In this document: positions 7,716-57,602 of the stretch, in pieces
Position numbering within the stretch: position 1 is the stretch's first letter
Layout: each line of letters begins with the position of its first letter
Virus record (IMG/VR): IMGVR_UViG_3300029305_003884
Coordinates: 64,001-128,000 of that record
Origin: a virus
Lineage: Duplodnaviria > Caudoviricetes
Direction: 5' to 3' (one strand)
DNA length: 64,000 nucleotides
Position numbers and translations under genes: made by a program
Notes under the pieces: generated by a model
Seen by the model: only the letters and a program-made list of their open reading frames with translations
Told to the model about the DNA's origin: nothing
The model's database searches: none

Positions 7716-7841
7716 ATTCTACTCATGGATTGAATCTCATAAGTAAAATACATTTTAATTAAACTGCCATAGATACAGAAACCCATCCCACCCAAAATGA
7801 ATCTACTTTATAAACCATGGATATACCACTTGGGTACGACC

Positions 7842-8537
7842 ATGAATCTATTTGAATCGGAAATCAGCAAGCTAAAACTCAGCCCGACGGCAAAAGAGAC
7901 CATCATTCAACTGCGAAAGATATGTCTTGAATCGGAGAACGACGAACAATTCGGAGAAGAAGAAGGTGCAAAGAACGATGTCAGCAACCGTCGTCATTTT
8001 GCCAATGAAAACAATCCTGACACCCGCCCGACTGATGAAGTAAATACTCTTCCAGATATATGGGGATTCGGTCCCCTGTCCGACATAGAAGGTGAAGAAA
8101 ACAAGGTAGACTACAAGAAGATTGACGAGGCCAAACAGCTATTTCTGCACCAAGGTGGACATTCTAAAATAGTGAGCCGCCTTCTGGAGTTTTTAGATGA
8201 AGAATGGCGTTCCAGCGGCGTCGAAGTCACCGGCGTGGACGAATATGACCCGAACGAAGATAATTTCCCGAGAGCCCACATCCACTGCGATGTAGGAGAC
8301 CACCATATCGAAATAGATGTTAGGATTAATTCCAACGAAGGCCTCCTTTCATACGTCATGTGGGATGAGGACAGACGTCGAAATCTGAATGTCCTCCTGT
8401 GTGAATATAGGGATGTCGACCCGAGTACATTGGAAGACCGTTACGAACTATCCAAGAAATACTCTCTTGATAACATCGACGAAATGCTCGAAGACATCTC
8501 GACGGACATTTCATCAATCTTTATCTGGGGTATATAA
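7842..8537 (+). CDS. Acidic late protein with the shared N-terminal leader (candidate internal head protein)
   Basis: Late box TATAAACCA at 7809-7817 places the start at 7842; leader aligns with the genes at 21970 and 25666. Confidence 0.6.
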   Translation: MNLFESEISKLKLSPTAKETIIQLRKICLESENDEQFGEEEGAKNDVSNRRHFANENNPDTRPTDEVNTLPDIWGFGPLSDIEGEENKVDYKKIDEAKQLFLHQGGHSKIVSRLLEFLDEEWRSSGVEVTGVDEYDPNEDNFPRAHIHCDVGDHHIEIDVRINSNEGLLSYVMWDEDRRRNLNVLLCEYRDVDPSTLEDRYELSKKYSLDNIDEMLEDISTDISSIFIWGI

Positions 8538-12620: not shown

Positions 12621-13556
12621 TTATTCTAGCAGATTGATTGATTTGGTCAATGTCATCAACTTATTTTCGTTACAGATAATCGGGCTCATGAAGATTGCCG
12701 TGTTCCCGAACGTGACCCTTTTCCACGGGAATGATGACTGAGCGATGGGAAACGGCCTCAACGAGATGATAACAAATGGATTGTAGGCGTTCTCCTTGGC
12801 CAGGTCGAGAACCTGAATGTTCTTGGAAAGTTCGATATTCACGTACGGGCCGTTTGCCGATACAACCTTGGCATATCCAGGGGTACCGTCACTGCGTAGG
12901 AGAATGGTCGGCCTCGTCTTCGGTCTGGAGAATGATGCAAACAGGGTCGTTGCCTGGGACTGGATTATCCTCAGGTAGTTCTCCATGTTGAAGTATCCTA
13001 TCGGGAGGGTACTCTTATCCAGCAACCCAGCCAGAATGTTCACGTATCTCCTGATGAGAGGCTGGTACATCTTGCCATTATCGTAATCTAATCTACTTAG
13101 CAAAGCATTGATAGCCTCGACATCCCTGACCTGGGAACTCGAAAGCATGATGTGGTTGCCAGCGGAATCGGTGATGGTATTCATTGTCGCATAGTTAAGC
13201 GCACGGAACGGACCGAGATACACCTTGTCCCCGAGTTTGATACGGGAGTTCTCGAAGAAGTTAAGCCCGTCAAGGATGGTCTTGAACATTTCCTTGTCCA
13301 GGTTACCCTTGTGCTTGATGTCCAGCTTTACCGAATCGTTCATGACGTAGTAGGAAAGGTTGCTGTACCCGTTTATGCGTACCGCCTTGACCTTAGCACC
13401 GTTGGCGTTCGTAAACTCGATGGGCGACGTAGTGACATAACTGGCCAGACCAGCGCCGCTACCAAGGCCAAGCGCCTTGGCTACGTCAAGGTAATCCCTT
13501 GACGCATCAGGGGTGTAGATGTATTGAGTGTTGTCATTTTTTATCTGGACTATCAT
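12621..13556 (-). CDS. Hypothetical late protein, possibly structural
   Basis: ATGA-coupled to the gp25 fusion gene. Confidence 0.6.
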   Translation of the reverse strand: MIVQIKNDNTQYIYTPDASRDYLDVAKALGLGSGAGLASYVTTSPIEFTNANGAKVKAVRINGYSNLSYYVMNDSVKLDIKHKGNLDKEMFKTILDGLNFFENSRIKLGDKVYLGPFRALNYATMNTITDSAGNHIMLSSSQVRDVEAINALLSRLDYDNGKMYQPLIRRYVNILAGLLDKSTLPIGYFNMENYLRIIQSQATTLFASFSRPKTRPTILLRSDGTPGYAKVVSANGPYVNIELSKNIQVLDLAKENAYNPFVIISLRPFPIAQSSFPWKRVTFGNTAIFMSPIICNENKLMTLTKSINLLE

Positions 13557-16500
13557 GAATCATTCCTGAATGTAAGCTCAATCTTTCTTGCAATACCACG
13601 AGGTACCTTGATGTAAAGGACGATGACAACCGTGTTGTCCTCGTTGATGGCAACATAGCTCTTGTCCTCGACCACTACCACCCTCGGTTCATACTTGTTG
13701 ATGAGGGTAACGCACTGGTTCAGTAGCTTGGACTCACCATTGAGGTCTCCGATAATATCGAACACGCTCTCCTCCAAGGTAGAACCGAACTCGTCGTCAT
13801 ACAGACGTTCACCAAGGTTGGTTAACAGGATGCTGTACACGTTCTGCATCAGGCTGTTCTCGTCAGCGGTGATGCTGAATGATGCGTAAGCCAAGTCCTT
13901 ATTGTATATCGGTTCGAAGTTCAGGTCATCGAATCGAGAGACGCTGTTCTTTTTCTTGACTATCGACGCCTTTCCGTCCACATCGAGCGGTTTGTCCTGC
14001 TCTTCCTTGGAAACTAGGTTAAGACAAACAGGGTCAGACATGCTACAAGTAATAACATCGCTATTATCGCCTCCGACATCAACCCTCAATTTAATATCAT
14101 TAGCAATGACGCCTGGATTCTTTATAGTAAGCCTTTCACGGTCAGGAGTTCCTGACAAGATGATAGCTGTAATCCATTCCTCTGAATCGGGAAGACAATA
14201 CTCCACAACATTGTTCATGAAATTCTGATTGAACCTCACCGTACTTTCAGGAGCAATCATTATCTCGATGTCTTCATAGGTGTCAAAGGTTGGACACTCC
14301 TCATCATCGGATTTTTTAACAAGTATTATTGGAATATCGCACTCAGTCACGATGACCGTCCTATCAAGGTCAGCAGTGACATGACAGCTATCTTCCGCAG
14401 TGTATCTGATTGTATAACGTCCTGGCTCCTTCCACCACTCTTGATTATCAGTCAATACCTGTGATGTATATGATATTGGCTTGCCCAAACCATCCTCGGC
14501 ATAGATATCCTTCGGTTCAGGTTCAACCCAAGGGGTACCTTTCGCCCACTTTACGGTCTGTAATGACGTGTCAATATAGTATATGATTGGACCAGGGATG
14601 AGAGAAACACTCTTTTCATGTCCCTCAACGTATGGGCGGGTCTTGCTGCCATCCTCTACCCACCTTATACCGAAGCTATGAGTTCCATACTTAGTGGTAA
14701 CCACCTTGATGGATATGTTCGCCGCAGTTACAGAATCTATACTATCTATCGAGAAGTAATTCCAGTTAGTTCCGCACAGTCTCAATTTCAGGTTATCGGT
14801 TTCGTACAGGTTGACTCCACGGTATGCAAGGACATCCCCACTTTTAGTACAACTAAATGCTTTTTGGAATATCACAGGTTCAGTCCAGTTTGCAGTCTGG
14901 TGGAGAGCACCCTCGTTCGTATCGCCTGCCCACACTTCAAGGCGTCCTCCCCTTTGACTAAGTTCATCGTCACTGATAACCAAGTCAAATGTAAAGTTTC
15001 CCCTACCATCATCGCTATGCGAAATTGGACTGATATTTGTGAAATGCGTATAGTCAAGATAGGCGTTGCCAAGCATAGCCCATATTCCAGATACCCCTGG
15101 ATTCTGCGTGCTAGTCGACAAAATACGGTAATCACTATCGGACACTTTAAAGCTCAATGTATGAGTATCACCAGTACTAGAAAATCCCATCAACGTCAAG
15201 TCAATTTTAGTATCGATTACGGTCAAAGGAAGAGCTGTATGGTTTCCAGCAACATCGTATATATCGATTACTGTGCTACGGTTCAGGGTCAGTGTAAGCT
15301 TGATAAACCTAGAGTCATTGCCCCCAAGCAAGTATTCGATATTATAGTTAGACAACGGGTTTCCATCGATGTTATCAATTTCGTTCAAGTCAGAGATGTA
15401 AACATCGAATGGCACATCGACATGGTGTTCCTGTTCGGGAATATAGCATATAGGGGGTTCTTCGTCAATCTGCATGTACAGACGGTTAGCATAATCCGTT
15501 GTACTACAATTAGTATCCTCTATGGTGACCGACGTTACCGTGTTGTACAAAACAACAGGATTACCACCTTCCTCTATGATATCCTCAATGTACTCTACAT
15601 CCTCAGGTGAAAGCGAAACATATGTAGGGGTAAGCCATTCGTATCTGAATATATATGTAGACGAGAGTCTTAACCAGTAGTAGGGACCTTCGCCATCTTC
15701 GACCACGTTGACGACATAATAATTCCTGCCATATACAAGTCCTTCTGGTAGTTCAGCATCTTCTGCTGCATCCGTATTTTCTGTATGCGAGTATTCACCC
15801 GTGTAAACAGCAGCAACAATATCACCAGGCCCACAGAACGGATAATCCGAGGCTTTCACCTTAAATTCAGTAACTCCGTTTTCATCATTACGAATACCGT
15901 AAAGAGGCATTGACCTTTGTAGGTCCAAATGGTCATAGTCGAAATAAGGCTCATCGTTATTCCAACGGAGGGACACTGGAACTCCCCCAGCAGCAATTCC
16001 GTCTTCCCATCTGGGATGACCTAGAACCGCTTTCGCTGTTTCCTTATTCAACTTATCAAAATTAAAGCCCTTCAATATCACCCTGTTATTTGGGCCGACA
16101 TGTGAAAAACGGTCAGTCTCTCTGTCGGTACTTTCTTCCGATGCGACAACAACATCAATATCGGTAAGAATTACAGGATTGACTTCATTCGATTGATTGA
16201 CACCGTTATTATATACGACAGAGAGAGATGGCTTATCGTCAGTAGCTTCATCATGTATAACATCAAACTGGAGGAAACCATCCACATACCCATATTTTCC
16301 ATACCACTCTGGGCCATCTACACCTAGATTAGATGGTTCGTTCTCGGCATCCGTAGCCTTGTACGTAGAAATCATCCTTGAAAGATTCCTGATAATTCCA
16401 CCTTCTTCACCATGGTCGCCTGGGTCCCATTCGTTGTTGTATTTGAAATACACCTTACGTTCACTGTACTCTACATGAAGAACAGTAGCAGTAACCTTCT

Positions 16501-18535
16501 TCTTTCCCTCGACAGGGTCGTCTACAATTCGGCCCGTGTCATAATGGTCACTGTTCATTATTTCAATTTTGTCGCCGACCGCAAAAAACGGCTTGTCCGC
16601 ATCCCAACTACGAACGTTCAATAGACTAGAATCATCAAAAAACTTAGGAGAAATTGTCGCAACAAACGCACCGACAGAGCCCAAGGTCGTCTTTTCAATC
16701 GAATCACATACAAGGTACATGTAAGTATTGTAAATCTCAATAGTAGGTGTCACTCCGATATATTTAGGTGAATTCACCGCTATGTATGGCCATAAACCAT
16801 CATCGTTTTCACGAGAGGCAAACTTGATAGGGTCGCTAACATTCACGGCTCCATTTAGCGACTTAATGAAAATTGTATTACTACCTCTGGCAGTGAACAT
16901 CTTTACCATGTGTTCATTGTCAATGTAGAATTGAACGTACTTGTTTGTAAACGTCCTTGAAGGGTTACCATACGAATACTCAGAGATGCTTCCGACAGGA
17001 TATCCATTCCATGAGCCGTTACGTATATCCAAAAGGACTCGGCTAACATCAGATTCGGTCCATCTATCGTTGCCAAAGTCATACAGTTCGAGTGTATTAT
17101 TTCCTGTTCCACCAGAGGACAAAGCGTATATATACATTCTTGCTACCATGTCTGGGTCAGGTTCAGCATCGCCACCATAGTATGGAACAGGGAACTTAAT
17201 AATCGGTAGATACACTTCACCAGTAAGACACAATTGAGCTTTTTCACCATTAGATACATTCAGGTCATTAGAAGCGTAGTAAGTATCTTGGCATGCATAA
17301 AAAATTGCACTATCGTTGGAATGGCTTTTTACCTTTTGAGGTGCAATCTCATCATGAACCACATTGAATGCAACATCTGAGGAGGGTACACGAGGGGTGT
17401 ACACGAGTGTTCCAGAAGTCACTCCCGTAGGGAATGTCTCACCATCGACAGGAACTGCGGTTATTCCATTCGAACTCACCGAAGTTACAACCATGTGAAC
17501 GTCGTGGTCAGATGAGTTGTACCGGAACGTAACATTGTCATTCTCGGCAAAGTTCCGACGGCAACTGATTCCGCTAGGGTCAGTTCCAGTAAAAGTGAAG
17601 GTTACTGCTGAACCGTTAACTGCTGCCGATACGCTCTCTGTATACTCATACAACACCCAACGTTCCCACACAAGGTCACTCCATGTGGCATGTGTGTATT
17701 CAGGATGATTCAGTGCATTTATCTTTAATGGATTATGATACGTTTTGTACTTAAACGAAGTTTCGGTCGTTTCGATAACGATGAAGTCACCAAGATATCT
17801 TTCGCCAGGAGCTTTACCGAAAAGTCTACCCTGTCTTTCGGTATATACTGGAACATCAGAGACAGACCTACTGTACAGCGTTACAGCATCACCGACCTGT
17901 AATCCATGTGGCCCATCAGTCTCTACAACGACAGTTTCAACCTTATACAAGTCGCTATCGTCTGAACAAGTAGACGCCCTGCCACTAGGAAGCGTGGCCG
18001 GGTCAGTATAAATCCTACTGACATCTCCATCATCTATCTTGTGTTCAAGAACGACGTTCATCGGGTTCTTGACATACTCATTGGAATTAGAATATCCTAA
18101 AAACGAGAATGCGTCTTCAACGTCAGACGGTGAGAAGATACCGTTGTCTCCCGCATACGGTGCGGTAATCCAAGCCTCGGCATTGTTTGGCATAGAGCTA
18201 AAAGGTCGGTCATCGTCAAACCTCATTATCAGCTCTGTATTGAACTTTGATTTGGAACCATCAAACTTTGGTGGACGGTTAGGGTTCGTCCAGTCATTAT
18301 ATGAACCCGTTAGACGGGTCATACCGTTTCCATCATACACCATAAGTCCACTATTCGGAGTAACAGTGGAGTTAGGCGTATTCGCCGTTAAAAAATGACG
18401 AATACGGTAGTTTTTTATAGGTACACTCTCGTCCCCATCAGTCGCCAGGAAACGGTACGCTTCTTTGTAATGTTGAGACATCTGTTGGAAATCTGCCTCG
18501 GATGTCATCAGCCGCATGTATAGATTTATCGCCAT
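13553..18535 (-). CDS. 1660-aa virion protein: DNRLRE/CBM96-like and Ig-like domains fused to a C-terminal gp25 baseplate-wedge domain
   Basis: C-terminal SILLTNLGERLYDDEFGS..FD..YEPRV is the gp25 signature; late box at 18559-18567. Confidence 0.75.
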   Translation of the reverse strand: MAINLYMRLMTSEADFQQMSQHYKEAYRFLATDGDESVPIKNYRIRHFLTANTPNSTVTPNSGLMVYDGNGMTRLTGSYNDWTNPNRPPKFDGSKSKFNTELIMRFDDDRPFSSMPNNAEAWITAPYAGDNGIFSPSDVEDAFSFLGYSNSNEYVKNPMNVVLEHKIDDGDVSRIYTDPATLPSGRASTCSDDSDLYKVETVVVETDGPHGLQVGDAVTLYSRSVSDVPVYTERQGRLFGKAPGERYLGDFIVIETTETSFKYKTYHNPLKINALNHPEYTHATWSDLVWERWVLYEYTESVSAAVNGSAVTFTFTGTDPSGISCRRNFAENDNVTFRYNSSDHDVHMVVTSVSSNGITAVPVDGETFPTGVTSGTLVYTPRVPSSDVAFNVVHDEIAPQKVKSHSNDSAIFYACQDTYYASNDLNVSNGEKAQLCLTGEVYLPIIKFPVPYYGGDAEPDPDMVARMYIYALSSGGTGNNTLELYDFGNDRWTESDVSRVLLDIRNGSWNGYPVGSISEYSYGNPSRTFTNKYVQFYIDNEHMVKMFTARGSNTIFIKSLNGAVNVSDPIKFASRENDDGLWPYIAVNSPKYIGVTPTIEIYNTYMYLVCDSIEKTTLGSVGAFVATISPKFFDDSSLLNVRSWDADKPFFAVGDKIEIMNSDHYDTGRIVDDPVEGKKKVTATVLHVEYSERKVYFKYNNEWDPGDHGEEGGIIRNLSRMISTYKATDAENEPSNLGVDGPEWYGKYGYVDGFLQFDVIHDEATDDKPSLSVVYNNGVNQSNEVNPVILTDIDVVVASEESTDRETDRFSHVGPNNRVILKGFNFDKLNKETAKAVLGHPRWEDGIAAGGVPVSLRWNNDEPYFDYDHLDLQRSMPLYGIRNDENGVTEFKVKASDYPFCGPGDIVAAVYTGEYSHTENTDAAEDAELPEGLVYGRNYYVVNVVEDGEGPYYWLRLSSTYIFRYEWLTPTYVSLSPEDVEYIEDIIEEGGNPVVLYNTVTSVTIEDTNCSTTDYANRLYMQIDEEPPICYIPEQEHHVDVPFDVYISDLNEIDNIDGNPLSNYNIEYLLGGNDSRFIKLTLTLNRSTVIDIYDVAGNHTALPLTVIDTKIDLTLMGFSSTGDTHTLSFKVSDSDYRILSTSTQNPGVSGIWAMLGNAYLDYTHFTNISPISHSDDGRGNFTFDLVISDDELSQRGGRLEVWAGDTNEGALHQTANWTEPVIFQKAFSCTKSGDVLAYRGVNLYETDNLKLRLCGTNWNYFSIDSIDSVTAANISIKVVTTKYGTHSFGIRWVEDGSKTRPYVEGHEKSVSLIPGPIIYYIDTSLQTVKWAKGTPWVEPEPKDIYAEDGLGKPISYTSQVLTDNQEWWKEPGRYTIRYTAEDSCHVTADLDRTVIVTECDIPIILVKKSDDEECPTFDTYEDIEIMIAPESTVRFNQNFMNNVVEYCLPDSEEWITAIILSGTPDRERLTIKNPGVIANDIKLRVDVGGDNSDVITCSMSDPVCLNLVSKEEQDKPLDVDGKASIVKKKNSVSRFDDLNFEPIYNKDLAYASFSITADENSLMQNVYSILLTNLGERLYDDEFGSTLEESVFDIIGDLNGESKLLNQCVTLINKYEPRVVVVEDKSYVAINEDNTVVIVLYIKVPRGIARKIELTFRNDS

Positions 18536-18558
18536 AATTCACCATTTTAATCAAAAAA

Positions 18559-18567
18559 TAGTTTATA
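18559..18567 (-). promoter_or_regulatory. Late promoter TATAAACTA
   Basis: Exact motif, upstream of a structural gene. Confidence 0.75.
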
Positions 18568-18576
18568 ATCGGGGCA

Positions 18577-19470
18577 CTAAATCGTAGCGGCAACAGCTTG
18601 GTCTTCCTGGTTCTGCAAAAGCTTACTTTTCCTCATGTGCATGATGATATGCTCGCCAAGGGCGTTAGACATGTCAGTGAGGTCATTCTCGATTGCTTCT
18701 ACGGGGAAATCCTCGGCAATCACGGTAGCCCGATTGATATACTTTGGGGAATTGCTTGTCCATATCGTGTACATGAACCCGTCGGAACCGCACTTTACCG
18801 AAACCTCACGAATCGAGGCATTTCCCCCTATTCCGACAAGGTAGTAGACCCCGTCGCTATTGTCGTAGTCGACAATCGTTTGATTTGACGGATTGTTATA
18901 GTTCTTATCCCGCTGCAATGCATCCATCTCGGCACCCGTCAGGGCATAAACCTCGACATATCCCGCATTCGGGAGTTCGAGTTTACGCACGGGTTCAATC
19001 TCGTTCTGGATGAGCAGCGTACTCAGCATTTCAGGGTCAATCTGGTCGTTTTCCAGCAAGTTTCCCGCCACCGCCTGCTGCAAGGTGGGGTCGATGGCGT
19101 CAGCCGAGTCGATTGCACCGAACTGGTACACATGGGTGTTGTTGTATGTGAGCATCTCGGTTATAAACGAACCGCCACCCCCATTGGTATCAATGCTTTC
19201 CAATGACTCCCCAGACAGGCGGAAGCAGGTGGAGAATATGAGGGGAACGCCGTCAATGACTATAAAGTACAACGGTTCCAGACTGTAAGTCGGATTTTCC
19301 TCATCGCCCCCACGCACAATGAAGATGGGAACTATCTTGTTGTTGGCCTCACCAGAATCGACAAGCTCGTCGAGGTGTTCGGCAAAGTTCTCAACCATCG
19401 TGGATGCCGTATTCTCGTCATCGTGGACGTAGAAATCGGACATCAGGTAATAATAACGAGACATCAACAT
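18577..19470 (-). CDS. Hypothetical acidic protein
   Basis: Long ORF in an operon with 19472..19807. Confidence 0.65.
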   Translation of the reverse strand: MLMSRYYYLMSDFYVHDDENTASTMVENFAEHLDELVDSGEANNKIVPIFIVRGGDEENPTYSLEPLYFIVIDGVPLIFSTCFRLSGESLESIDTNGGGGSFITEMLTYNNTHVYQFGAIDSADAIDPTLQQAVAGNLLENDQIDPEMLSTLLIQNEIEPVRKLELPNAGYVEVYALTGAEMDALQRDKNYNNPSNQTIVDYDNSDGVYYLVGIGGNASIREVSVKCGSDGFMYTIWTSNSPKYINRATVIAEDFPVEAIENDLTDMSNALGEHIIMHMRKSKLLQNQEDQAVAATI

Positions 19471-20139: not shown

Positions 20140-21855
20140 ATGCTCTTTTCATCGAAAAAGAAAAACCCCGAAAATGTAGCGTCGATGGTCATGACGCACG
20201 TAAGGAACTACGGGGAGAACAACCCGAAAGGCGAACTGTTCGACCGAGTGTTCAACGGCGAAGACCTCTCCCGCAACATATCCAGGTCTAGGAACGCCGT
20301 AGGACAGGGCGTCCAGCAGATGATGTACCCGAACGGGTTGTCACCTGACGGATTCTCCACCTACATGCCGGCCATAATGATTAACGATGGCCAGATTGAC
20401 CCGAGCAAGGTACAGGACACCATCGCTGAAAACCAGGTTCAGCTATACTGGCGAAACAATGTGGAACGCATGTTGAAGTACAACATCATCGCCACCCGCT
20501 CGGAAGTGAACGAGTCCCTGACCCAGATTTGCAACGAGGCAATCTACAAGGACGACAAGGGCGACATCTGCAGCTTGCAGGTGAACGAGTACTCTGGAAT
20601 TGCGGAAGTGACCAAGATGAGCTTGCAGACAATCTTCAAGAGGGACGTCCTCAGGAAGATTTGCAACTTCAAGAACACGGCATGGCAATACATGAAGAAG
20701 ATGCTGACCGAAGGCCGTATCTTCCTCGAAGTCGTATATGACGAGTCGACCAACGAAATAGTAGGCCTGAACCTCCTCCCTGGTGAGAACATGATTGTGG
20801 TTGTCCAGGACAACATGATTATCGGCTACCGCCAGATGTTGACTGGAACCTACGCCCATAGCAGCAAGAACTACATCGACTATTCCCCGAACCAGATTTT
20901 GTTCCTCTCACTCGACCTTTACGGCCCAGGTGGCGTGAACGACCCGAGGTCCATTCTCGAACCAGCAGTTAAGGCCCATAACCAATTGAACACGATTGAA
21001 GACAGCGTTGTTATGTACCGTGTGCTTTGGGGCTCCGAAAAGATGGTTCTGAAAGTGGACGTGGCTGGCCAGCCTAAACCACAGGCCGAAGCGACCATGA
21101 AGGAACAGGCCAAGCTGTTCAGCCGACAAATCGACTATAACGCCACCACGGGTGAAATTACCAACTGGGGTAAGGCGATAGGTCTGTCAGAACACTTCGT
21201 TATCCCTGTCAACGGCAGCTCCTCTGGTTCCAGCATCGAAAGGCTCCCAGGTGGCGACCAATTGGGAAACATCGACGACCTTAAATTCTTCAAGAGGAAC
21301 CTCGTTAACGCATTGATGGTTCCCCCTGGACGTATCACGGCATTGGCTGGAGATAACGTAAACTACTCTAACGGTAAGATTGGTGAAGTCACACAGGCGG
21401 AAGTTGCCTTCGCTCGACTCGTCGAACGCTACCAGACCCCGTTCGAGCAAGGCCTCGTCAGGCTGTTCATCATGGTTCTGAACACAAGGAAGGAGTTCAA
21501 CGAAGAGATTAAACTCGAAGAGAACTTCGATATCAAGTTCAAGCGAAGCAACGGCTTCCAGAGCTATATCGACGCCGACGTTTGGACTACCCGACTGTCC
21601 GTGTTCTCCCAGATGATGGAATACGCAGTGAAGGACGAAGCCCCGAACAACCCGCTTTCACAGGAATACTGCCTCCGTTACGGTCTAGGCATTTCCGATG
21701 CAGACCTAACCCAGAACCGCAAGTGGCGTGAACACGAACAGAAGGTTCTTCTCGGTGAAGAAACCGATGTCGACAGCGGTGGCGAGGGTGGCGGCCTGAA
21801 CGAGTTCGGTGGTGGCGGCGAAATGGCCCCCGCACCCGAGACAGGAGCCTTCTAG
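20140..21855 (+). CDS. gp20: Portal protein
   Basis: EV...I.NEAI, S.LEPA.K..NQL..IEDS.V.YR, VDV, LPGG.QLG.IDDL.FF...L..AL.VP, E..F...V.R.Q..F. Confidence 0.93.
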   Translation: MLFSSKKKNPENVASMVMTHVRNYGENNPKGELFDRVFNGEDLSRNISRSRNAVGQGVQQMMYPNGLSPDGFSTYMPAIMINDGQIDPSKVQDTIAENQVQLYWRNNVERMLKYNIIATRSEVNESLTQICNEAIYKDDKGDICSLQVNEYSGIAEVTKMSLQTIFKRDVLRKICNFKNTAWQYMKKMLTEGRIFLEVVYDESTNEIVGLNLLPGENMIVVVQDNMIIGYRQMLTGTYAHSSKNYIDYSPNQILFLSLDLYGPGGVNDPRSILEPAVKAHNQLNTIEDSVVMYRVLWGSEKMVLKVDVAGQPKPQAEATMKEQAKLFSRQIDYNATTGEITNWGKAIGLSEHFVIPVNGSSSGSSIERLPGGDQLGNIDDLKFFKRNLVNALMVPPGRITALAGDNVNYSNGKIGEVTQAEVAFARLVERYQTPFEQGLVRLFIMVLNTRKEFNEEIKLEENFDIKFKRSNGFQSYIDADVWTTRLSVFSQMMEYAVKDEAPNNPLSQEYCLRYGLGISDADLTQNRKWREHEQKVLLGEETDVDSGGEGGGLNEFGGGGEMAPAPETGAF

Positions 21856-21886: not shown

Positions 21887-21916
21887 AGCCCTCGTACCAA
21901 GTACGGGGGCTTTATT
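21887..21916 (+). terminator. Rho-independent terminator after the portal
   Basis: AGCCCTCGTAC-CAA-GTACGGGGGCT then TTATT. Confidence 0.65.
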
Positions 21917-21969
21917 CATACCCCCATTCCTTTATAAACTATACATGTACGATTTTATTGGACTATAAA

Positions 21970-22572
21970 ATGGACAAGACCAAACTCTTTATGGAATCCA
22001 TCGGACAACTGTGATTGACAAGGGCTCAATTCGATGCCGTCAGGTCTCTGTATGAAGCAATCAATGATGACACAGGTGTAGACCCCTCTGTGTATGAACC
22101 ATTATTGGCTAAATACGGTATTGACAAGATGATTGACCTACTCAAGGAACATCAGTTCGAAGTACATGACATCAGCGTCTACAAAGAAAAAGACCACGGG
22201 TATGGACATTACACGCTATATCACGTATTCATCCAAGTAAAGGAACGTGGCGAAAAGAATTATACAGGAAGAGACATCGAACTTAGAATCACACTTTTCC
22301 CCACCTGCTATAATAACCCATTTGATGGAAGAATCTTCCTCGTAGATTGGGAGACATACTATGTATGCCAAGATGGAACTACATCAGAAAAGAGCTGCAA
22401 CTACAAGACTGGTGACGACATGTATATGGCCCTAGAAAACTTCTTTACGCAAGATGCGAAACGGGAACCAGCAGAAACAGAGCCCTGGACCGAGGAACAG
22501 AAACAAGCCGCACTGAGATACTGGGGTGACTTACAGCTAAGCAATGACATACGCAATATGTTCAATGATTAA
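21970..22572 (+). pseudogene. Late gene with the shared leader, interrupted by an in-frame TGA at 22012-22014
   Basis: ATG 21970 reads MDKTKLFMESIGQL*LTRAQFDAV... in frame with ORF 22015..22572; late box at 21933-21941. Confidence 0.65.
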
Positions 22573-22709
22573 CCATTTTAACAAAAAAGCCTCCATTTTA
22601 AGGCTTTTTTCATTTCAATGCAGATTTTGAGGTAAAAAAATTTTTGTGAAAATACCTCAATAAACTTAAAGTAGAACTCAAACAGTGCCAGGTGGCACAG
22701 GATAACAAT

Positions 22710-24200
22710 ATGCAACAGTTCAGACCTAAGTCAGCTACGAGCAAGTGGGCTCCGATTTTGGAATCCAACCTTGGCCGTAAGCTCAAGTCCCGTGCTGAAG
22801 CTTCTGTGGTTTCCACTCTTCTCGAAACCCAGTGCAAGCTCAACAAGGGTTTCCTCCCCGAATCTGCTAACGTCTCTGCAGACGTGGCTCAGTACCAGCA
22901 GTACGCTTTGCCGCTGGTGCGTCGTCAGTTCCCTGACCTCCTCGCTATGCAGACCGTGGCAACCATTCCAACAACAACTCCTAACGGAATTTACTTCGCA
23001 CTTCGTTTCCTCTATGACGACGAAGCTCCGAAGACTGTTGGTTTCCGTAAGGGCCTGAAGAAAGAAATCGGTTACGACCTCGTTGCCGACCATACTGGTG
23101 TGAAGGGCACGTTCAACCCGTGGACAACGACCGCTGGTGAAATGCTTTCCAACTATGCCGAAGGTACGTTCGGTGGCCCGTCTTTCGATGGCGCTGCTAT
23201 GAACTCTCAGAACGGTGCTGGTCACGCTTACGTTACCAACCACTGGGCTGACAAGCCGGGCTATGGCGACTACTACGATGAAGCCGAAGGTCACTACAAC
23301 ATCAAGAAGGCCAGCATCAAGGTGGTGTCTGGTGCTATCCGTGTTGGTACCAAGGCTATCAAGAGCCATTACACCCTCGAACTCCAGCAGGATATGGCTG
23401 CTGCTCACGGCCAGGACGTTGAAGCCCTGTTGCTCGAAGGCTTGCAGTTTGAAATCCAGCAGGAAATCGACCGTGAAATCCTCGCTGCTATGGTGTCTGT
23501 CGCTCAGAACCCTGCATTCGGTGGTGAAGCTGCTATCACCGTTGACCTCTCTGGTCACGCAAACTTCCAGGATGGCCGTTGGGTCGCCGAAAAGATTGCT
23601 GGTGGTATCGTGAACACGATTATCGCCGTTGCCCGTAAGATTTCTCTTACGACCCGTATGGGCTCTGGTAACTTCGCAATCTGCTCTCCGAGCATCGTTG
23701 CTGCAATCTCTACCCTTAACTCTGGTATCTATATCCCGACTTACCTCGGTACGGATGCCGCTGTTCAGCCGGGTGGTGGCGTTTCCGACGCTGGTTCTCT
23801 CCTGAGCGGTCAGATTAAGCTCTACCAGGATATCTACTCTTGGCAGGACTACGCTCTCGTTGGTTACAAGGGACCTCGTCAGGGCGAATCTGGTATCATC
23901 TTCATGCCTTACATCCCGTACATCTTCTGCAAGACCGCTGGTCAGGAAGACGGTAGCCCACGTCTCATCGTGAAGAGCCGTTACGCCATTGTCAGCAACT
24001 TGCTCGGTTGCGGCCTGTTCTACCGTGTTGTTCGCTTCGTGAACAACGACCTCTTGGGTGTTTCCTTCACTGGCGACATTCCTTGGGAATCTAACGAAGG
24101 TCCTACTGTGGGCGTAACCCTCGACACCGTTGGTGTTGCAGTTGGTGGCCACACGCTCGACCGTCCGTTCGGTACGGCTGCTCAGGAAGAAGAGTGGTAA
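22710..24200 (+). CDS. gp23: Major capsid protein
   Basis: KW.PILE, LPLVRR.FP.L.A, P.G..FALR..Y, K.HYTLELQQD..A.HG.D.E, EI..EIDREI, VGYKG, PYIP, SRY; AGGA RBS before ATG 22710. Confidence 0.96.
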   Translation: MQQFRPKSATSKWAPILESNLGRKLKSRAEASVVSTLLETQCKLNKGFLPESANVSADVAQYQQYALPLVRRQFPDLLAMQTVATIPTTTPNGIYFALRFLYDDEAPKTVGFRKGLKKEIGYDLVADHTGVKGTFNPWTTTAGEMLSNYAEGTFGGPSFDGAAMNSQNGAGHAYVTNHWADKPGYGDYYDEAEGHYNIKKASIKVVSGAIRVGTKAIKSHYTLELQQDMAAAHGQDVEALLLEGLQFEIQQEIDREILAAMVSVAQNPAFGGEAAITVDLSGHANFQDGRWVAEKIAGGIVNTIIAVARKISLTTRMGSGNFAICSPSIVAAISTLNSGIYIPTYLGTDAAVQPGGGVSDAGSLLSGQIKLYQDIYSWQDYALVGYKGPRQGESGIIFMPYIPYIFCKTAGQEDGSPRLIVKSRYAIVSNLLGCGLFYRVVRFVNNDLLGVSFTGDIPWESNEGPTVGVTLDTVGVAVGGHTLDRPFGTAAQEEEW

Positions 24201-25534: not shown

Positions 25535-25665
25535 ATTTTTATCTCCTATAGATGTCTAATACAATATATATTATTTTATGCCAAGTGTCATACATTTTTT
25601 TAATTTTATAACGCTATGCTCATAGCCATATTATAAACTATTAATATAAAATTTCGTAATATACA

Positions 25666-26250
25666 ATGACCTCAGAATACGCACTAGATGTATTTACCAA
25701 GTCCGCCGAACAGATACTTACCTCCAAGGTACAATTGGAAGCGGTAACAGATTTGGCAAAGACGTTACTTGAATTTGCCGACCCAAGAAACGATGTAAAC
25801 CATCCGTCCTGTTCGTCAGGTCTTCTCATCACGGATGGAAAGGTATTCCTAGCAGAACTCCCGACAGGCAACAAGAAAGGCAAGCCGCATCAGTATGACC
25901 TTCCAAAGGGTCACGTTGAAAACGATGGCGAATCCGTAAAGGATGCCGCTTTCAGGGAAGCCTTGGAGGAAACTGGGTATAACTGGCATAAGTATTACAA
26001 CGATGCCAAGGGAATCTTCCGCAAGCAAGTGCCATTCCGTAAAGGAAACAACCTGATGTTATACAGGATAAATCTGAAAGAACTTCCTCCCCTGACATCC
26101 TATTCCTGCAAGTCCTACTTCCATGACCCTAAGAAGAACGCCGCCATACCCGAAGCATGCTCCTACGAGTACCTCCCGTTGAAGGAAATCGGAAAGTGGC
26201 TGTGGCCCGAGTTCGACAAGACCTTCAAGAGGGAAGGAATCAAGTTCTAA
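25666..26250 (+). CDS. NUDIX hydrolase, late paralogue with N-terminal leader
   Basis: LPKGHVE...AAFREALEETG NUDIX box; late box at 25632-25640. Confidence 0.88.
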   Translation: MTSEYALDVFTKSAEQILTSKVQLEAVTDLAKTLLEFADPRNDVNHPSCSSGLLITDGKVFLAELPTGNKKGKPHQYDLPKGHVENDGESVKDAAFREALEETGYNWHKYYNDAKGIFRKQVPFRKGNNLMLYRINLKELPPLTSYSCKSYFHDPKKNAAIPEACSYEYLPLKEIGKWLWPEFDKTFKREGIKF

Positions 26251-27664: not shown

Positions 27665-28155
27665 TACAAACGATTTGCTTTGTTAGATTCAGCCTCAACG
27701 AATTTAGCCAATTCGATAAGGCCGACATTTCCGTAAATCAATTTCATTTCCTCGCTGCAATCAGCCTCGGGTTCGTCACTTATCTTGTTGCACATGTCTA
27801 CATAGGATTCGAGTTCCTTCTTTCGTTCTTTCGCATAGTTCAAAAGAAGCTGGTATTCAGATGCGGTAAGCTTGTTCGCATCGAACTCATACTCGCCTTC
27901 TCCGTAACGTACAGTAGACTTTGCAAGGATGCGGCGTATCTCTGCGGCGAGTTCAACATCACGCTTTACCTTCTCAATTTCCTCACTGTACTCAGGAGGT
28001 TTAACCTTCTGTGGTTCAGTCTTGGGCGGTTCAGCAATCTTGCGGGCCCTAACCTTCGCCTTGCGGAACAGCCACCACTCACGCACCAGCATGGCGATAG
28101 CGCCAAAGACATGACAACCGACCAGAGCGGCAACTATAAATTCAATCAGTTTCAT
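27664..28155 (-). CDS. Hypothetical protein with N-terminal membrane anchor
   Basis: Hydrophobic N-terminus; coupled start/stop overlaps. Confidence 0.65.
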   Translation of the reverse strand: MKLIEFIVAALVGCHVFGAIAMLVREWWLFRKAKVRARKIAEPPKTEPQKVKPPEYSEEIEKVKRDVELAAEIRRILAKSTVRYGEGEYEFDANKLTASEYQLLLNYAKERKKELESYVDMCNKISDEPEADCSEEMKLIYGNVGLIELAKFVEAESNKANRL

Positions 28156-28607
28156 TTGGATTCCTGGAACAGGCCTAGCCTGTCAAATGTGCGGCTGTAA
28201 CCCTTGAAGAGCCACTTCCTGATTTCGGAAAGAGGTTTGTAGGCATAGCCAATAACCTCGGGGACAGTCTTGCCAGTCCTCTTGTCTGGGAAGAAGCTCT
28301 GGCACTTGTACTCGCCGATATCAGGCATCTCTTCCTTCGTCAAGTCGAGACGGTACAGGACAATCTGCTTGCCCTTGATGTAGCTGACAGGTTCATTACA
28401 CAATGCGTATGCACGGTCCTTATAAGCATCAAAATCGTAACCAGTTTCTTCCTTCGCTTCTCTAAACGCAGTGCCCCTAAAGTCACTGTCGAAATCCTCG
28501 ACGTGACCCTTAGGCAAATCAAAATGGTGTTCACCAGGAGTCTGGTGTAGCGGCAGTTCGACAAGGAACTTTTCGCCGTCTGTTATCAAAAGGCCAGCCG
28601 ATACCAT
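28152..28607 (-). CDS. NUDIX hydrolase, paralogue without the leader
   Basis: LPKGHVE...AFREAKEETG; GGAGG RBS. Confidence 0.88.
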   Translation of the reverse strand: MVSAGLLITDGEKFLVELPLHQTPGEHHFDLPKGHVEDFDSDFRGTAFREAKEETGYDFDAYKDRAYALCNEPVSYIKGKQIVLYRLDLTKEEMPDIGEYKCQSFFPDKRTGKTVPEVIGYAYKPLSEIRKWLFKGYSRTFDRLGLFQESK

Positions 28608-28709: not shown

Positions 28710-29837
28710 TTATTTCTTGCTGAGATACAGTAACAGCAGGTTGAATCCGTAGCAGATGCAACATGCAACAAACAGCATGTCCACTGGTAGACCTTTGAGG
28801 AAGAGCGATGCAATGCCAGCGATACCCCAAGCGCTCAACGTCAACGAGTGTATCGTAGATGTATTCGTTATCCCGTACTTGCTTGCAAGCAGTGCAGGCA
28901 ATGCAGAAAATCCACCGCCATAACATGCGTTGATGAGCATGACGCTGACGACGAACACACCAAGTCCGCCGACGCCGAAGTTCACCAGGCACAGCAGAGA
29001 ACTCAATGCAAAGAGGATTACATACGGAACATACCGTCCGAACTTGTCGCTAACCCAAGCAAAACCAAATCGGCCACCAGCGTTGAACACGGCACTCAAT
29101 GTACAAAGCGCAGTCGCCATCCCGAGCGCCACACCGTAGTGGGAATACAACTGGGCTTCCTGACTGATGAAGGCAAGGCCGCAAGCGATGTTGATGAAGA
29201 AGAACAGCCAAATCGAGATGTATGGCAACGTCCGTACCGTCTTCCCGATATTGATTGTCTCGACCGTAGGCGGCTTGTAGTTGACAGGGAACTTCCTGAA
29301 CAGGAACGATGTCACGATAAGCGGAACCGTATAGATTAAGGCAAGAAGGAAGAACACCTGGTCGATAGCGAAGTTCGAAGTCATGTAGGTATACAACGGG
29401 CTCGCAACAGACTTTGACAACCCGAAGGACAGGATGGCTATTGCTGATGCGACCGCCTTGTTATGACGGAAGTACAGCATCAGGGTTTTAATCGGCGCCA
29501 CATATCCGAGGCCACATGAGCACCCGAAAAGGCATCCGTAGGCCAGATAGAATAGCCAGACACTTCCTATGCTGCAGGCCACCCCGCTTAGGACAAATCC
29601 ACCCACGAAGAAAATCACCGATAGGATATATGTTGCCTTCGGGTTCTTCTCGACGAACTTTCCCATGAATGCTGCAGACAGTCCGAGGAACAGGATTGCA
29701 AGAGAGAATGCAAACGACATGTCATGGTTGAGAACAGCGTTGACAGCATTAGAGAGAAGAGACCAGGCATATACCTGGCCAATGCATAAAGAAAGAAGGA
29801 CGGTTGCAAGCACCGTCCTGATTTGTAGAATTTTCAT
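28710..29837 (-). CDS. MFS transporter, OFA (oxalate/formate antiporter-like) family
   Basis: G.VYAWS, FS..I..LGLSAA..G..VE, G.GY.AP.KTL..YF, FNA.GR..F...SD..GR, YGGGFS.LPA; many TM helices. Confidence 0.85.
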   Translation of the reverse strand: MKILQIRTVLATVLLSLCIGQVYAWSLLSNAVNAVLNHDMSFAFSLAILFLGLSAAFMGKFVEKNPKATYILSVIFFVGGFVLSGVACSIGSVWLFYLAYGCLFGCSCGLGYVAPIKTLMLYFRHNKAVASAIAILSFGLSKSVASPLYTYMTSNFAIDQVFFLLALIYTVPLIVTSFLFRKFPVNYKPPTVETINIGKTVRTLPYISIWLFFFINIACGLAFISQEAQLYSHYGVALGMATALCTLSAVFNAGGRFGFAWVSDKFGRYVPYVILFALSSLLCLVNFGVGGLGVFVVSVMLINACYGGGFSALPALLASKYGITNTSTIHSLTLSAWGIAGIASLFLKGLPVDMLFVACCICYGFNLLLLYLSKK

Positions 29838-32624: not shown

Positions 32625-34382
32625 ATGAAAGTTTACTTCGATTTCCTTAAAGATAACTCGGCTGTCGTCAACGTCTATGACGGCACCCCAACTGAAATCA
32701 ATCGAGTATATGCCTACCTTAACACTTGCATCAAGTATGAGGACAAGCAGGCCACCTACACCGAAAAGTACAAGAACGGATACAAGAAGGAATACGTCAA
32801 TTTTTACGACAAGGATGAACGGACCGTGCCCATCGGTCTGATTGCTAGGGTGTGCGACATGTTGAAGGGTAAGTTCCCGACGATGCAAATCGGGATGTCG
32901 TCCCTGTCCCCGAGGATTCAGTCGATGTTCACGCCGAAGGTCGTATTGAGCAGGGAGGACATCATCAAGTACGCCGAGACGCTCAACATCCACGACCGCA
33001 AGGAGGGGTTCAAGCTCAGTCTATATGACCATCAGGTTGAACTCATCTATCAGGCCATGCTGCACCGACGTGGTTCGTTGAAGGCCTGCACAGCCTCTGG
33101 AAAGTCACTGTCCATCTATGTGATGGCGAGGTACATGACCGAGGTCGAACACAAGAAGATTGCCATAGTCGTTCCGAACTCGGGCCTCGTGGTCCAGTTG
33201 ATGGAAAACTTCTACGACGACTACTCCTGGGACGAGGCGCACGAGAACTGTACCCTAATCTACGGGGACTCCAAGGACAAGCTGACTGCCTCACAGAAAA
33301 AGAAGCTGGCTGAACTGCACCTTGGCGAGGAAGTGATGTTGAAGCCTATCGTCATCACGACTTGGCAGAGTCTGCAGAACAAGGAGCCGTCCTTCTTCAA
33401 GCGGTTCGATGCGGTTATCGTTGACGAATGCCAGGGATGCCGTGGTCCAGTCCTCCGTAAGATTCTCGACTATTGCACGTCGGCGGAGAACTTCAAGATA
33501 GGCGTTTCGGGTACGATTCCGAAGGAAGGCCTTGAAGCAGCCTGCATCGAGGCGTCTCTTGGAAAGAGGTACGAGATTGTCAGCCTGTGGCAGCTTGCCG
33601 AGAAGAAGCTTATCTGTCCTGTGAAGGTGGTCGGCCTGTTCGTTCCGTATCCGCTGGATTGCCGAACGACCATCTGCTACTCGAAGTTCGATGAGGAGTA
33701 TTCAATCGTGACTGGCAACCGCAGTCGGTACGACATCCTCGACATGCTCATCAACAACAAGATGATAACGACGGAGCAGAACACGGTTATTCTTTTCCGA
33801 AACATCGACCCGCTGGAACGAGTCGCCGCATACTTGCAGGAACATCATCCAGAGTTCAAGTACAGCATCATCAAGGGAGACGTAAAGGCCGTCGAGAGAA
33901 ACAAAATCCGTGCCGAAATGGATTCATCTTACGGGCACATTCTTCTCGGCACATACGGCTGTCTCCAAGCGGGAATGAACGTGAAGAAGTTGAACAACCT
34001 TGTTTTCGGCGACCCAGGAAAGTCGATGTACATGATTATGCAGTCGATTGGCCGTATCGTCCGTAAGTGCAACGGCAAGGAAATCGCAACCTGTTACGAC
34101 ATCGTTGACGACGCTTCGTACATGGTACATGGTCGCAAGCTGGGTGACCACATCAACGAGAACTGCATGGTTCGTCACTTCCGTGAAAGGATGAATTACT
34201 ACGATGATGACAAGATTCCTGTAACCACGGTCGACCTCACGGGTATAGTCGAGGCCGATGTCAAGCTCGACGATATCAAGCAGAAGAGAAAGGAGAAGGC
34301 GGAGAAGCGTGCGGCCCAGATGGAGAAAAAGAAAAAGAAGGCCGCAGAGGGCCTTCTGAAAAACTACCGCAGGCAGTTCTAG
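32625..34382 (+). CDS. uvsW: UvsW-like SF2 helicase
   Basis: TASGKS, TTWQSL, DECQ, SGT, QSIGR..R, YDIVDD; late-type box TATAAACTT at 32542-32550. Confidence 0.9.
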   Translation: MKVYFDFLKDNSAVVNVYDGTPTEINRVYAYLNTCIKYEDKQATYTEKYKNGYKKEYVNFYDKDERTVPIGLIARVCDMLKGKFPTMQIGMSSLSPRIQSMFTPKVVLSREDIIKYAETLNIHDRKEGFKLSLYDHQVELIYQAMLHRRGSLKACTASGKSLSIYVMARYMTEVEHKKIAIVVPNSGLVVQLMENFYDDYSWDEAHENCTLIYGDSKDKLTASQKKKLAELHLGEEVMLKPIVITTWQSLQNKEPSFFKRFDAVIVDECQGCRGPVLRKILDYCTSAENFKIGVSGTIPKEGLEAACIEASLGKRYEIVSLWQLAEKKLICPVKVVGLFVPYPLDCRTTICYSKFDEEYSIVTGNRSRYDILDMLINNKMITTEQNTVILFRNIDPLERVAAYLQEHHPEFKYSIIKGDVKAVERNKIRAEMDSSYGHILLGTYGCLQAGMNVKKLNNLVFGDPGKSMYMIMQSIGRIVRKCNGKEIATCYDIVDDASYMVHGRKLGDHINENCMVRHFRERMNYYDDDKIPVTTVDLTGIVEADVKLDDIKQKRKEKAEKRAAQMEKKKKKAAEGLLKNYRRQF

Positions 34383-40991: not shown

Positions 40992-41077
40992 TCTTATAAA
41001 CATAGAATGTCAACACATTAGCAAGTCTGAAGACCATGACCCCCTGGGTTGAACGTCGAACCAGACAGGAGTACAAT

Positions 41078-42334
41078 ATGTCTAAATTGACAGACAGGTT
41101 GAAGGCAAATAAAGCCTTCGCAGAAAACATCATTAGCAAGAACGAACCAGTCGAATACATTGGTTCAGGAATCCCAGTTCTTGATATCCTTTTCAGTGGT
41201 ATGATTGGCCACGGTATCAAGAAAGGCCACATGACGGAAATCGCAGCCCCGTCTACAATGGGTAAGTCCCTCATCGGTCTTTACTATCTCGCCACTGCTT
41301 ATCACGCTGGCATGGACTGCCTCGTAGTATCGTCGGAAGGCGCATTCAACTTTACGTTGGCCCAGCGTCTCGGTGTGAATACTGACGACATCGTTGTGTT
41401 CGAGTCCAAGTATATCCACCAAATCAACGAATTTATCACTAATGCCCAGAAGGAGATGAGCCGTAAGGAACGTCACGAAGTGTTCCTCCTGTTCGACTCT
41501 TGGGGCCCGATTATCTCCTTGCAGCGTGTCGAAGCCATTGAAAAGCAGACGGGTAAGGACAAACCGACTGCCGACATGGGTCAGACCGCTATCAAGAAGA
41601 ACGAACTCGCCAAGCTGATTAACGCATCCGAGTTCACTTCACTTATCATCAACCACGTTTACGACTCCCTCGAACAGTACAAGGACCCGAAGAATATCCC
41701 TGGTGGTTGCGAACTGTACTTCAACAGCGATGCCATCGTGCTTGTTTGTACGAATGGAAGAGCCTACAAGTCGAAGAACGAGTCTTCCAAGATTGGTAAG
41801 ATTGGTAAGATTGCCACCGCCCAGATTAAGAAGGGTCGTGACGGTATGGAAAACCGCACCTGCGAATACCGTATCCTTACGAACGGTGGTATCGACCGCT
41901 GGTATGGTCTTGTCGACGATGCGATTGCCGCTGGTGTTGCCGTTGTAACGCCGAAGGGTAATAAGGGCACATTCGTGCATCGTCCTGACTACGACATCGA
42001 CAAGGAAACTGGCGAACTTCTCCGTGAGTTCCGCTGGACGGATGACGATAGCGACCAGTGCAACACCAAGGAGTTCATGGAACCGCTGGTAAGCGACCCG
42101 AAGTTCCTTGCTTACATCGAGAAGGCATACATGTACGATGTGTCTCTCTTCGCCCGTGACCTCGTGGGTGACATGCCCGCCCCGATTTCCGAGGAAGAAG
42201 CCACCAAGAAGAAGGCCCGTAAGAGCAAGTTGAAGGCTGAAGCTGCAGCAACCCCGAAGAACATCAGCGACGAAATCGAAGGTGTTCAGGAAGAGACCGC
42301 AGCCGAGATTGCCGCAAAGGGCACTCAGGCTTAA
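41078..42334 (+). CDS. uvsX: UvsX/RecA-like recombinase
   Basis: SG...LD...SG, Walker A APSTMGKS, SEGA, FDS, INHVY, PGG; AGGAG RBS. Confidence 0.9.
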   Translation: MSKLTDRLKANKAFAENIISKNEPVEYIGSGIPVLDILFSGMIGHGIKKGHMTEIAAPSTMGKSLIGLYYLATAYHAGMDCLVVSSEGAFNFTLAQRLGVNTDDIVVFESKYIHQINEFITNAQKEMSRKERHEVFLLFDSWGPIISLQRVEAIEKQTGKDKPTADMGQTAIKKNELAKLINASEFTSLIINHVYDSLEQYKDPKNIPGGCELYFNSDAIVLVCTNGRAYKSKNESSKIGKIGKIATAQIKKGRDGMENRTCEYRILTNGGIDRWYGLVDDAIAAGVAVVTPKGNKGTFVHRPDYDIDKETGELLREFRWTDDDSDQCNTKEFMEPLVSDPKFLAYIEKAYMYDVSLFARDLVGDMPAPISEEEATKKKARKSKLKAEAAATPKNISDEIEGVQEETAAEIAAKGTQA

Positions 42335-52658: not shown

Positions 52659-53368
52659 TTCTTTTTCCCTCTGAGATGGATAATGACGCTACCGTTTTCG
52701 CCGTTGTTCTTTCCGCTGTGTCCCTTACCGACGAACGTGTAGTCCATTTGCTTGCCGTCATGCATGAATGTCAGCTTTACATCCTTTTCTATGAACCCAG
52801 TTCCATTGCATACGCTGCATTTTTCCTGAGGTTCAAGCCCACGACCGTTGCAGAATTTACATGCGAGGACTACGTCATGGAGACCATCATCTTTGCGTTC
52901 GACCGTGCGAACCTTACCGATACCGTTGCAATGGGTGCATTTCCTGAACCTGCTGGCACCAGTGCCCGAGCAGTTGTAGCACAGGCACCTGCGGACGTAC
53001 TTTACGCTGATTTCGCCTGGGCAGAACAGCTTTTCGTCACTCAACCTTATGGTGCGGGTTACGTTCCTTCCCCGTTTCTGGTATTTCTTGTCGACTGGCT
53101 TCTTGTGGAAGTTCTTGCAGATGTTGCATTCGCCGAATAGCTTTGACCATAGTGTAAAATCGGAGTTGTTCTGGTGTTCACGGTCATATTTCTTACGGAG
53201 TTCTTCTGTTTTAATCAGATTGTATGCTTCCGTGATTTCAGCCATCTTGTCGGAAGTGTCCGATTTAGAGTGGTCGGGGTGAAACTGTATCGCCAACTGG
53301 CGGTACGCCTCTTTCACCTGTTTGTCGGTGCAATCTGGCTCTAAGTTTAGTACGCTATACGGGTTCAT
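52655..53368 (-). CDS. dnaJ: DnaJ-like co-chaperone (J domain plus zinc finger, C-terminally short)
   Basis: NPY.VL, HPD, four CxxCxGxG repeats; AGAGG RBS before ATG 53368; late box at 53391-53399. Confidence 0.9.
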   Translation of the reverse strand: MNPYSVLNLEPDCTDKQVKEAYRQLAIQFHPDHSKSDTSDKMAEITEAYNLIKTEELRKKYDREHQNNSDFTLWSKLFGECNICKNFHKKPVDKKYQKRGRNVTRTIRLSDEKLFCPGEISVKYVRRCLCYNCSGTGASRFRKCTHCNGIGKVRTVERKDDGLHDVVLACKFCNGRGLEPQEKCSVCNGTGFIEKDVKLTFMHDGKQMDYTFVGKGHSGKNNGENGSVIIHLRGKKK

Positions 53369-57539: not shown

Positions 57540-57602
57540 TTTTTAACAGCTGATTAAATCCTATAAACTATGTGTATAATGAATCGTTTTACGAGGAAGA
57601 AA

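Follow-up and report, generated by a model that had tools for sequence, protein, structure and literature searches.

A modular N-terminal leader on unrelated proteins of an uncultured giant T4-like phage: a candidate capsid-targeting propeptide

The window analysed here is a stretch of 64,000 nucleotides, bases 64001-128000 of a single virus contig (178,042 bp, 47.5% G+C) with an estimated completeness of 42% (CheckV); coordinates are those of the window unless genome positions are given, and genes are named by their starts. The contig belongs to an uncultured, giant, T4-like phage. Among its close relatives in IMG/VR are two complete genomes (419 and 422 kb) that have terminal repeats. No phage record was matched when the region was searched by Megablast, and the gp23-type major capsid protein shares only about 30% identity with its counterparts in cultured T4-like phages. 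A preliminary description had pointed to similar N-terminal peptides on the products of genes 7842, 21970 and 25666, and had proposed that these constitute a tag for loading proteins into the head. The three genes and the features around them are as follows (a slash after Glu marks the putative cut).

7809-7815, plus strand: TATAAAC promoter-like box, 33 nt upstream of the ATG of gene 7842
7842-7934, plus strand: leader of gene 7842 (residues 1-31), with Phe4 and with Glu30 (7929-7931) in ICLE/S
7842-8537, plus strand: gene 7842 (231 aa), consisting of the leader, a hypervariable acidic linker (about residues 32-85) and a conserved alpha/beta domain without assigned function
20140-21855, plus strand: T4-type portal protein (gp20 family; PF07230, 228 bits)
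21887-21911, plus strand: terminator-like hairpin after the portal gene, just 5' of the next box
21933-21939, plus strand: TATAAAC box, 37 nt upstream of the ATG of gene 21970, probably also serving the downstream capsid gene
21970-22056, plus strand: leader of gene 21970 (residues 1-29), a short form with four residues fewer, ending SLYE/A
21970-22572, plus strand: gene 21970 (200 codons including a TGA), between the portal and capsid genes
22012-22014, plus strand: in-frame TGA at the turn position of the gene 21970 leader; GGA (Gly) in relatives
22692-24200, plus strand: gp23-type major capsid protein (PF07068, 217 bits)
25632-25638, plus strand: TATAAAC box, 34 nt upstream of the ATG of gene 25666
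25666-25773, plus strand: leader of gene 25666 (residues 1-36), with Phe10 and with Glu36 in TLLE/F
25666-26250, plus strand: gene 25666 (194 aa), consisting of the leader and a Nudix hydrolase domain (PF00293, PHROG 1185)
28152-28607, minus strand: Nudix paralogue (151 aa) that lacks the leader and shares 44% identity with residues 49-192 of the gene 25666 product

All three peptides are present where they had been placed, and the Glu motif said to follow each of them can be read directly in the sequence. Gene 7842 is taken to start at 7842 rather than at 7797, because an open reading frame from 7797 would cross the TATAAAC box and because the paralogues and five orthologue calls use the downstream Met. 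The Nudix domain of the gene 25666 product is securely assigned (PF00293 at 38.9 bits over residues 53-129, with a cut-off of 21.1; PHROG 1185 at 4e-14). The part of the gene 21970 product that follows the leader forms a confident alpha+beta domain in the structure predicted by AlphaFold2, without a clear structural relative: no match at E <= 0.001 was obtained with Foldseek in the PDB or BFVD, and the best match in a wide VIA search (Z of 8.4) lies inside the stated background. The model of the gene 7842 product has a mean pLDDT of 57.5, too poor for a structure search.

Each of the three genes had been described as a solo unit behind its own TATAAAC late box. The boxes are there, but gene 21970 does not stand alone: the hairpin at 21887-21911 precedes its box and no terminator-like hairpin was found between it and the capsid gene at 22692, so that the two genes are probably co-transcribed, gene 21970 being the first. 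Genome-wide, the box lies upstream of 10 of 13 genes that carry the leader (the family is described below), at a distance of 33-40 nt, compared with 23 of 144 other genes (Fisher p = 9e-6). The same box also precedes genes for an MFS transporter (28710-29837, minus strand), a DnaJ protein with a J domain and a zinc-finger domain (52655-53368, minus strand) and a RecA/UvsX-like protein (41036-42334, plus strand). It is therefore not limited to virion genes, and to call it late is an interpretation.

The asterisk that interrupts the translated leader of gene 21970 was investigated as a possible case of recoding (for example, TGA read as Gly), which is ruled out because the site is GGA in all four relatives compared at the DNA level and TGA is an ordinary stop here, terminating 30 of the 154 called genes of this genome. 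The residue is Gly in all 15 protein orthologues, and Gly, Asn or Asp occupies the same position in other members of the family. The TGA is a single G-to-T change specific to this contig, a genuine nonsense allele or else an assembly error. In the first case, translation could restart at the TTG directly after it (22015), yielding a protein that lacks helix 1 of the leader.

By themselves, the three leaders are only weakly above chance: their pairwise gapless BLOSUM62 scores over 21 residues are 16, 15 and 30, and shuffled N-termini score 9.5 on average, with a 95th percentile of 19 and a 99th percentile of 24, so that two of the three pairs fall inside the shuffled range. The family-level evidence is decisive. 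A profile built from the leaders had been expected to find many more N-terminal matches in the genome and its relatives, and this is what happened. The hidden Markov model (HMM) of the three 21-residue peptides, run against all 2,037 stop-to-stop open reading frames of the genome, gave 10 matches at E < 1 and none in the reversed frames, and every new match falls directly after a Met. A second round with a ten-sequence HMM brought the family to 13 genome members against none in the reversed set, and in all 13 the match begins 3-10 residues after the Met. By genome position, the leader genes start as follows.

15970, 16683, 27320, 58331 and 133336, minus strand: leader genes
60040, 60458, 62198, 147737 and 161078, plus strand: leader genes
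71842 (gene 7842), 85970 (gene 21970) and 89666 (gene 25666), plus strand: leader genes of the window

The profile of the 13 members finds 21 and 23 genes in the complete 419- and 422-kb relatives, respectively, and 16 in a relative of 277 kb. Against 1.84 billion protein representatives it gave 89 matches at E <= 0.001, of which 75 lie within the first 35 residues; the remaining ones are mostly mis-called starts, and about six are unrelated repeat proteins. Five proteins of 1,300-5,200 residues (P0001, P0006, P0034, P0071 and P0083), each with 5-10 internal matches to the leader profile, appear to consist of helical repeats that have nothing to do with the leader, and were discarded as false positives. 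Among 50,697 phage records there were only chance-level matches (E >= 1), and no cultured phage among them carries the leader; nor does the leader match PDB sequences or, as a separate part, any Pfam or PHROG family. Outside the window, a protein of 195 residues encoded at genome 47506-48093 (plus strand) has Phe5 and CLME/S at residues 30-34 and does not reach the HMM threshold; its N-terminus may be a diverged leader, the fourteenth.

The leaders follow one plan. Met is separated by 2-9 residues from Phe, after which a short helix, a turn with Gly/Asn and a further helix lead to (V/I/A)-(C/L/I)-(L/F/M/Y)-Glu and a small residue. In a comparison of 84 distinct leaders, there is no exception to the Phe (80 of 80) or to the closing Glu (76 of 76), and Glu is followed by A, G or S in 65 of 73. 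Hydrophobic residues or Cys occupy the two positions that precede this Glu: P2 is L, F, M or Y, and P3 is C in 60 leaders, L in 10 and I in 6. Between Phe and Glu, position 8 is typically Leu, 9 Gly/Asn, 10 Leu/Ile, 17-18 Ala-Val/Ile and 21 Leu/Ile. In ten of the 13 genome members the distance between Phe and Glu was counted by hand: with Phe as residue 1, Glu is residue 27 in seven, 23 in two (including gene 21970) and 28 in one. From Met to Glu the leader measures 29-37 residues, and it is amphipathic and charged rather than a hydrophobic signal or SAR segment. The leader of gene 7842 hardly varies among orthologues that have as little as 57% overall identity, whereas the stretch of about 50 residues that comes after it is hypervariable and contains insertions and deletions, and orthologues of gene 21970 have the same pattern of a conserved leader followed by a hypervariable linker. 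Paralogous leaders have a median DNA identity of 50%, which indicates that conservation acts on the peptide and does not reflect recent copying. The tag had also been supposed to be helical, in agreement with the AlphaFold2 models of the gene 7842 product and of an intact orthologue of gene 21970, in which the leader is predicted to be a helix, a short loop and a second helix, preceding a linker of low confidence; the pLDDT of the leader is only about 60, and Glu is modelled inside helix 2, not in an exposed loop.

Beyond the leader, the proteins are unrelated as had been stated, with no BLASTP similarity among the 13 parts that follow Glu (best E of 0.04) and no relation in a profile-profile comparison of two of the cargo families. 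Recognisable cargoes are the Nudix hydrolase of gene 25666, an Amidase_2 protein, an SLT lytic transglycosylase, a peptidoglycan-binding protein (these last three of the 13 being directed at peptidoglycan) and a SWIM-like Cys/His protein; the remaining ones, among them a protein of 1,377 residues and the products of genes 7842 and 21970, have no family match. The idea that the tag is modular is borne out by the leaderless Nudix paralogue in the same phage, to which the gene 25666 product is 44% identical from residue 49 on, and which sits in a minus-strand gene block without a TATAAAC box of its own. Modularity can also be seen in the 260-kb genome of a sister clade (G004), whose capsid protein is 67% identical and in which neither the HMM nor an all-against-all comparison of N-termini detected the leader family. 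There, in the orthologue of the SWIM-like cargo (L099:17447-18526, plus strand), a 14-residue peptide ending IVE replaces the 32-residue leader; the alignment begins exactly at Glu (E33 = E15) and continues at 46% identity. On the evidence of the leaderless Nudix sequence and this exchange, the leader is an add-on module. The SWIM-like gene of G004 is followed on the same strand by an open reading frame of 233 codons (18547-19248), in the position held by the head protease gene in the phage studied here. Several other G004 proteins begin with short peptides ending in hydrophobic-x-Glu, and a scan of that genome for short Glu-ended N-terminal tags returned candidates only, with no consensus. 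Two G004 genes (1875-2426 and 32993-33346, both plus strand, on L096 and L097, respectively) encode a common N-terminal stretch that resembles helix 2 of the leader only and ends in FFE/G and LFE/Q, respectively; it may be a diverged or ancestral half-leader.

A protease of the gp21 type, on which the proposal of cleavage after Glu depended, is indeed encoded (Peptidase_S77, PF03420 at 51.4-51.8 bits with a cut-off of 27). The enzyme shares about 29% identity with its gp21 counterparts in T4-like phages, and its gene (genome 148768-149502) is directly preceded by a leader gene, that of the SWIM-like protein, and followed by a gene for a coiled-coil, scaffold-like protein (genome 149514-150464). 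In T4, gp21 cuts after L/I-X-E and removes 65 residues from gp23 (PMC9026906). The capsid protein of this phage has the sequence FLPE57/S58 (Glu codon at 22860-22862), conserved in all relatives examined, which aligns with the gp23 maturation site FLTE65/A66; a few leader variants that end in IYPE or TFPE resemble it. There is an LILE/G near the N-terminus of the S77 protease and one KLFE/A in the scaffold-like protein, and none of the scaffold-like protein, the protease and the capsid protein carries the leader. The cut-site motif shows no clear enrichment outside the leaders, where it occurs about 27 times, compared with 19.6 +/- 5.3 in shuffled sequences.

These features invite comparison with the capsid-targeting sequence (CTS) of T4, a concept already established along with CTS-like tags in relatives of T4 (PMC9026906). 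Internal proteins IPI, IPII and IPIII carry a CTS, and Alt a propeptide, that are removed by the prohead protease gp21 (PMC9026906, citing Mullaney and Black 1996); the propeptides of the internal proteins have 10-19 residues and target them to the prohead core before gp21 removes them (PMC9026906). The leader family resembles this system in being an N-terminal peptide common to unrelated proteins, ending in hydrophobic-x-Glu and a small residue, in a phage that likewise encodes an S77 protease and whose capsid maturation site aligns with that of T4; in both, the genes are dispersed behind boxes that resemble those of T4 late genes, and the set of cargoes turns over fast between relatives. T4 prohead-core genes lie between the portal and capsid genes, as gene 21970 does here. 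The differences are equally clear. As anticipated, the tag is not that of T4 in sequence, the leader HMM scoring IPI, IPII and IPIII below zero and finding no match in the whole T4 genome, and it is longer, by a factor of 2-3, with its 29-37 residues to Glu. It is predicted to be a helix-turn-helix in place of a short peptide; P3 is mostly Cys, as opposed to Leu/Ile in the T4 motif; there are 21-23 carriers per genome, compared with only a few in T4; peptidoglycan hydrolases and a Nudix enzyme are found among the cargo; and the leader is known from sequence alone.

In the giant phages phiKZ, 201phi2-1 and SPN3US, propeptides of head and ejection proteins are cut by gp21-like proteases (gp175, gp245), and the cut motifs described are S/A/G-X-E or A-X-E (PMC9026906, PMC10052503). 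Like the leader proteins as interpreted here, many of their head-internal proteins lose N-terminal propeptides after Glu through the action of a diverged gp21 homologue. However, those propeptides range from 20 to 254 residues, with no common leader described in PMC9026906 or PMC10052503; P3 in phiKZ and SPN3US is small (S, A or G), whereas in the leaders it is C, L or I; and the portal, capsid protein and protease of the present phage are closer to those of T4.

The explanation that best accounts for these observations, to which we assign a probability of roughly 0.65, is that the leader is a capsid-targeting propeptide cut by the head protease, working in the manner of a CTS without being homologous to it. 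The leader would dock each protein onto the scaffolding core during prohead assembly, the gp21-type (S77) protease would then cut after the invariant Glu and free the cargo inside the head, and at least part of the cargo would leave the head with the DNA at infection. A more specific and distinctly more tentative version is that the leader folds independently as a helix-turn-helix hairpin and acts as a docking domain peculiar to this clade, with a dedicated receptor in the prohead core; the domain may have arisen after the split from the sister clade and allowed more than 20 proteins, including cell-wall hydrolases, to be loaded, while the sister clade would still use short peptides of T4 size on the same cargo.

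Among other explanations, the one that survives best, though unlikely, is that the leader is a retained, uncleaved assembly or docking domain of an internal head body or of the portal or tail lumen, in which the Glu would be a contact residue. The length of the leader and its predicted helical hairpin, with Glu placed inside helix 2, would suit such a domain, as would the precedent of 42 SPN3US head proteins that are not cleaved at all (PMC10052503). Against it, an invariant Glu with hydrophobic residues before it and a small residue after it is the signature of a T4-type protease site, the linker becomes hypervariable immediately after this Glu, and the peptide ending in IVE that takes the place of the leader in the sister clade gives way to homology from the Glu on. 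Less probable still is an address tag with another purpose, for instance export to the cell wall (for lysis), recognition by a phage chaperone (for example DnaJ) or a host secretion system; the three peptidoglycan-directed cargoes and the phage DnaJ gene behind the same box could be cited in its favour, but the leader is amphipathic and charged, unlike a hydrophobic signal or SAR segment, a cytoplasmic-type Nudix enzyme and the SWIM-like protein encoded beside the head protease gene also carry it, and the genes of two members are neighbours of head genes, one being flanked by those for portal and capsid and the other coming immediately before that for the protease.

It is very improbable that the leader is a relic of common descent, retained without a targeting role at the N-termini of duplicates of an ancestral gene whose C-terminal parts diverged. 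The closest leaders are those shared by neighbouring members (genome 57-63 kb) and gene 7842, the leader of which is 70% identical in DNA sequence to that of the gene at genome 60040, as duplication would predict; but established folds and families that differ from one another (Nudix, Amidase_2, SLT) are represented among the cargoes, a Nudix paralogue exists without the leader, and the leader is far more constrained than the sequence after it. Chance similarity of the three N-termini, with which two of their three pairwise scores would agree, is refuted by the 13 members against none in reversed frames, the 21-23 per complete relative and the 75 N-terminal library matches.

What is new here, relative to the CTS of T4, is that the leader is long, probably folded, not homologous to the CTS, present on more than 20 proteins and attached to cell-wall hydrolases; the diagnosis of the TGA, the leaderless Nudix paralogue, the exchange of the leader for a short peptide in the sister clade and the alignment of the capsid site with that of T4 are likewise new. 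If the leader is indeed a capsid-targeting propeptide, one short profile suffices to name, from sequence alone, the head-loaded and probably injected proteins of a clade of uncultured phages of about 420 kb: 21-23 proteins per genome, most of them without assigned function, which would be prime candidates for roles in host take-over or anti-defence. It would also follow that the load-and-clip logic of T4 can work with a much longer, folded tag, and that the tag is exchangeable between sister clades on the same cargo. The CTS of T4 has served as a tool for packaging foreign proteins in phage heads, and a tag of 30 residues with a built-in release site could be useful for the same purpose. Should the leader prove to be an independently folded docking domain, this portable packaging domain could serve to read the injected proteome of uncultured giant phages from their sequences.

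Among the other window genes with a TATAAAC box, one (13553-18535, minus strand) encodes a protein of 1,660 residues with weak Pfam matches, below the cut-offs, to an Ig-like surface domain and the carbohydrate-binding module CBM96, and is probably a fibre or adhesin. Another (57570-59075, plus strand) encodes a protein of 501 residues without a family match; no more than 8 nt separate the box from the called ATG, and translation probably starts at an internal Met. With VLE/A and LFE/S within its first 40 residues, this protein may be another substrate of the protease.
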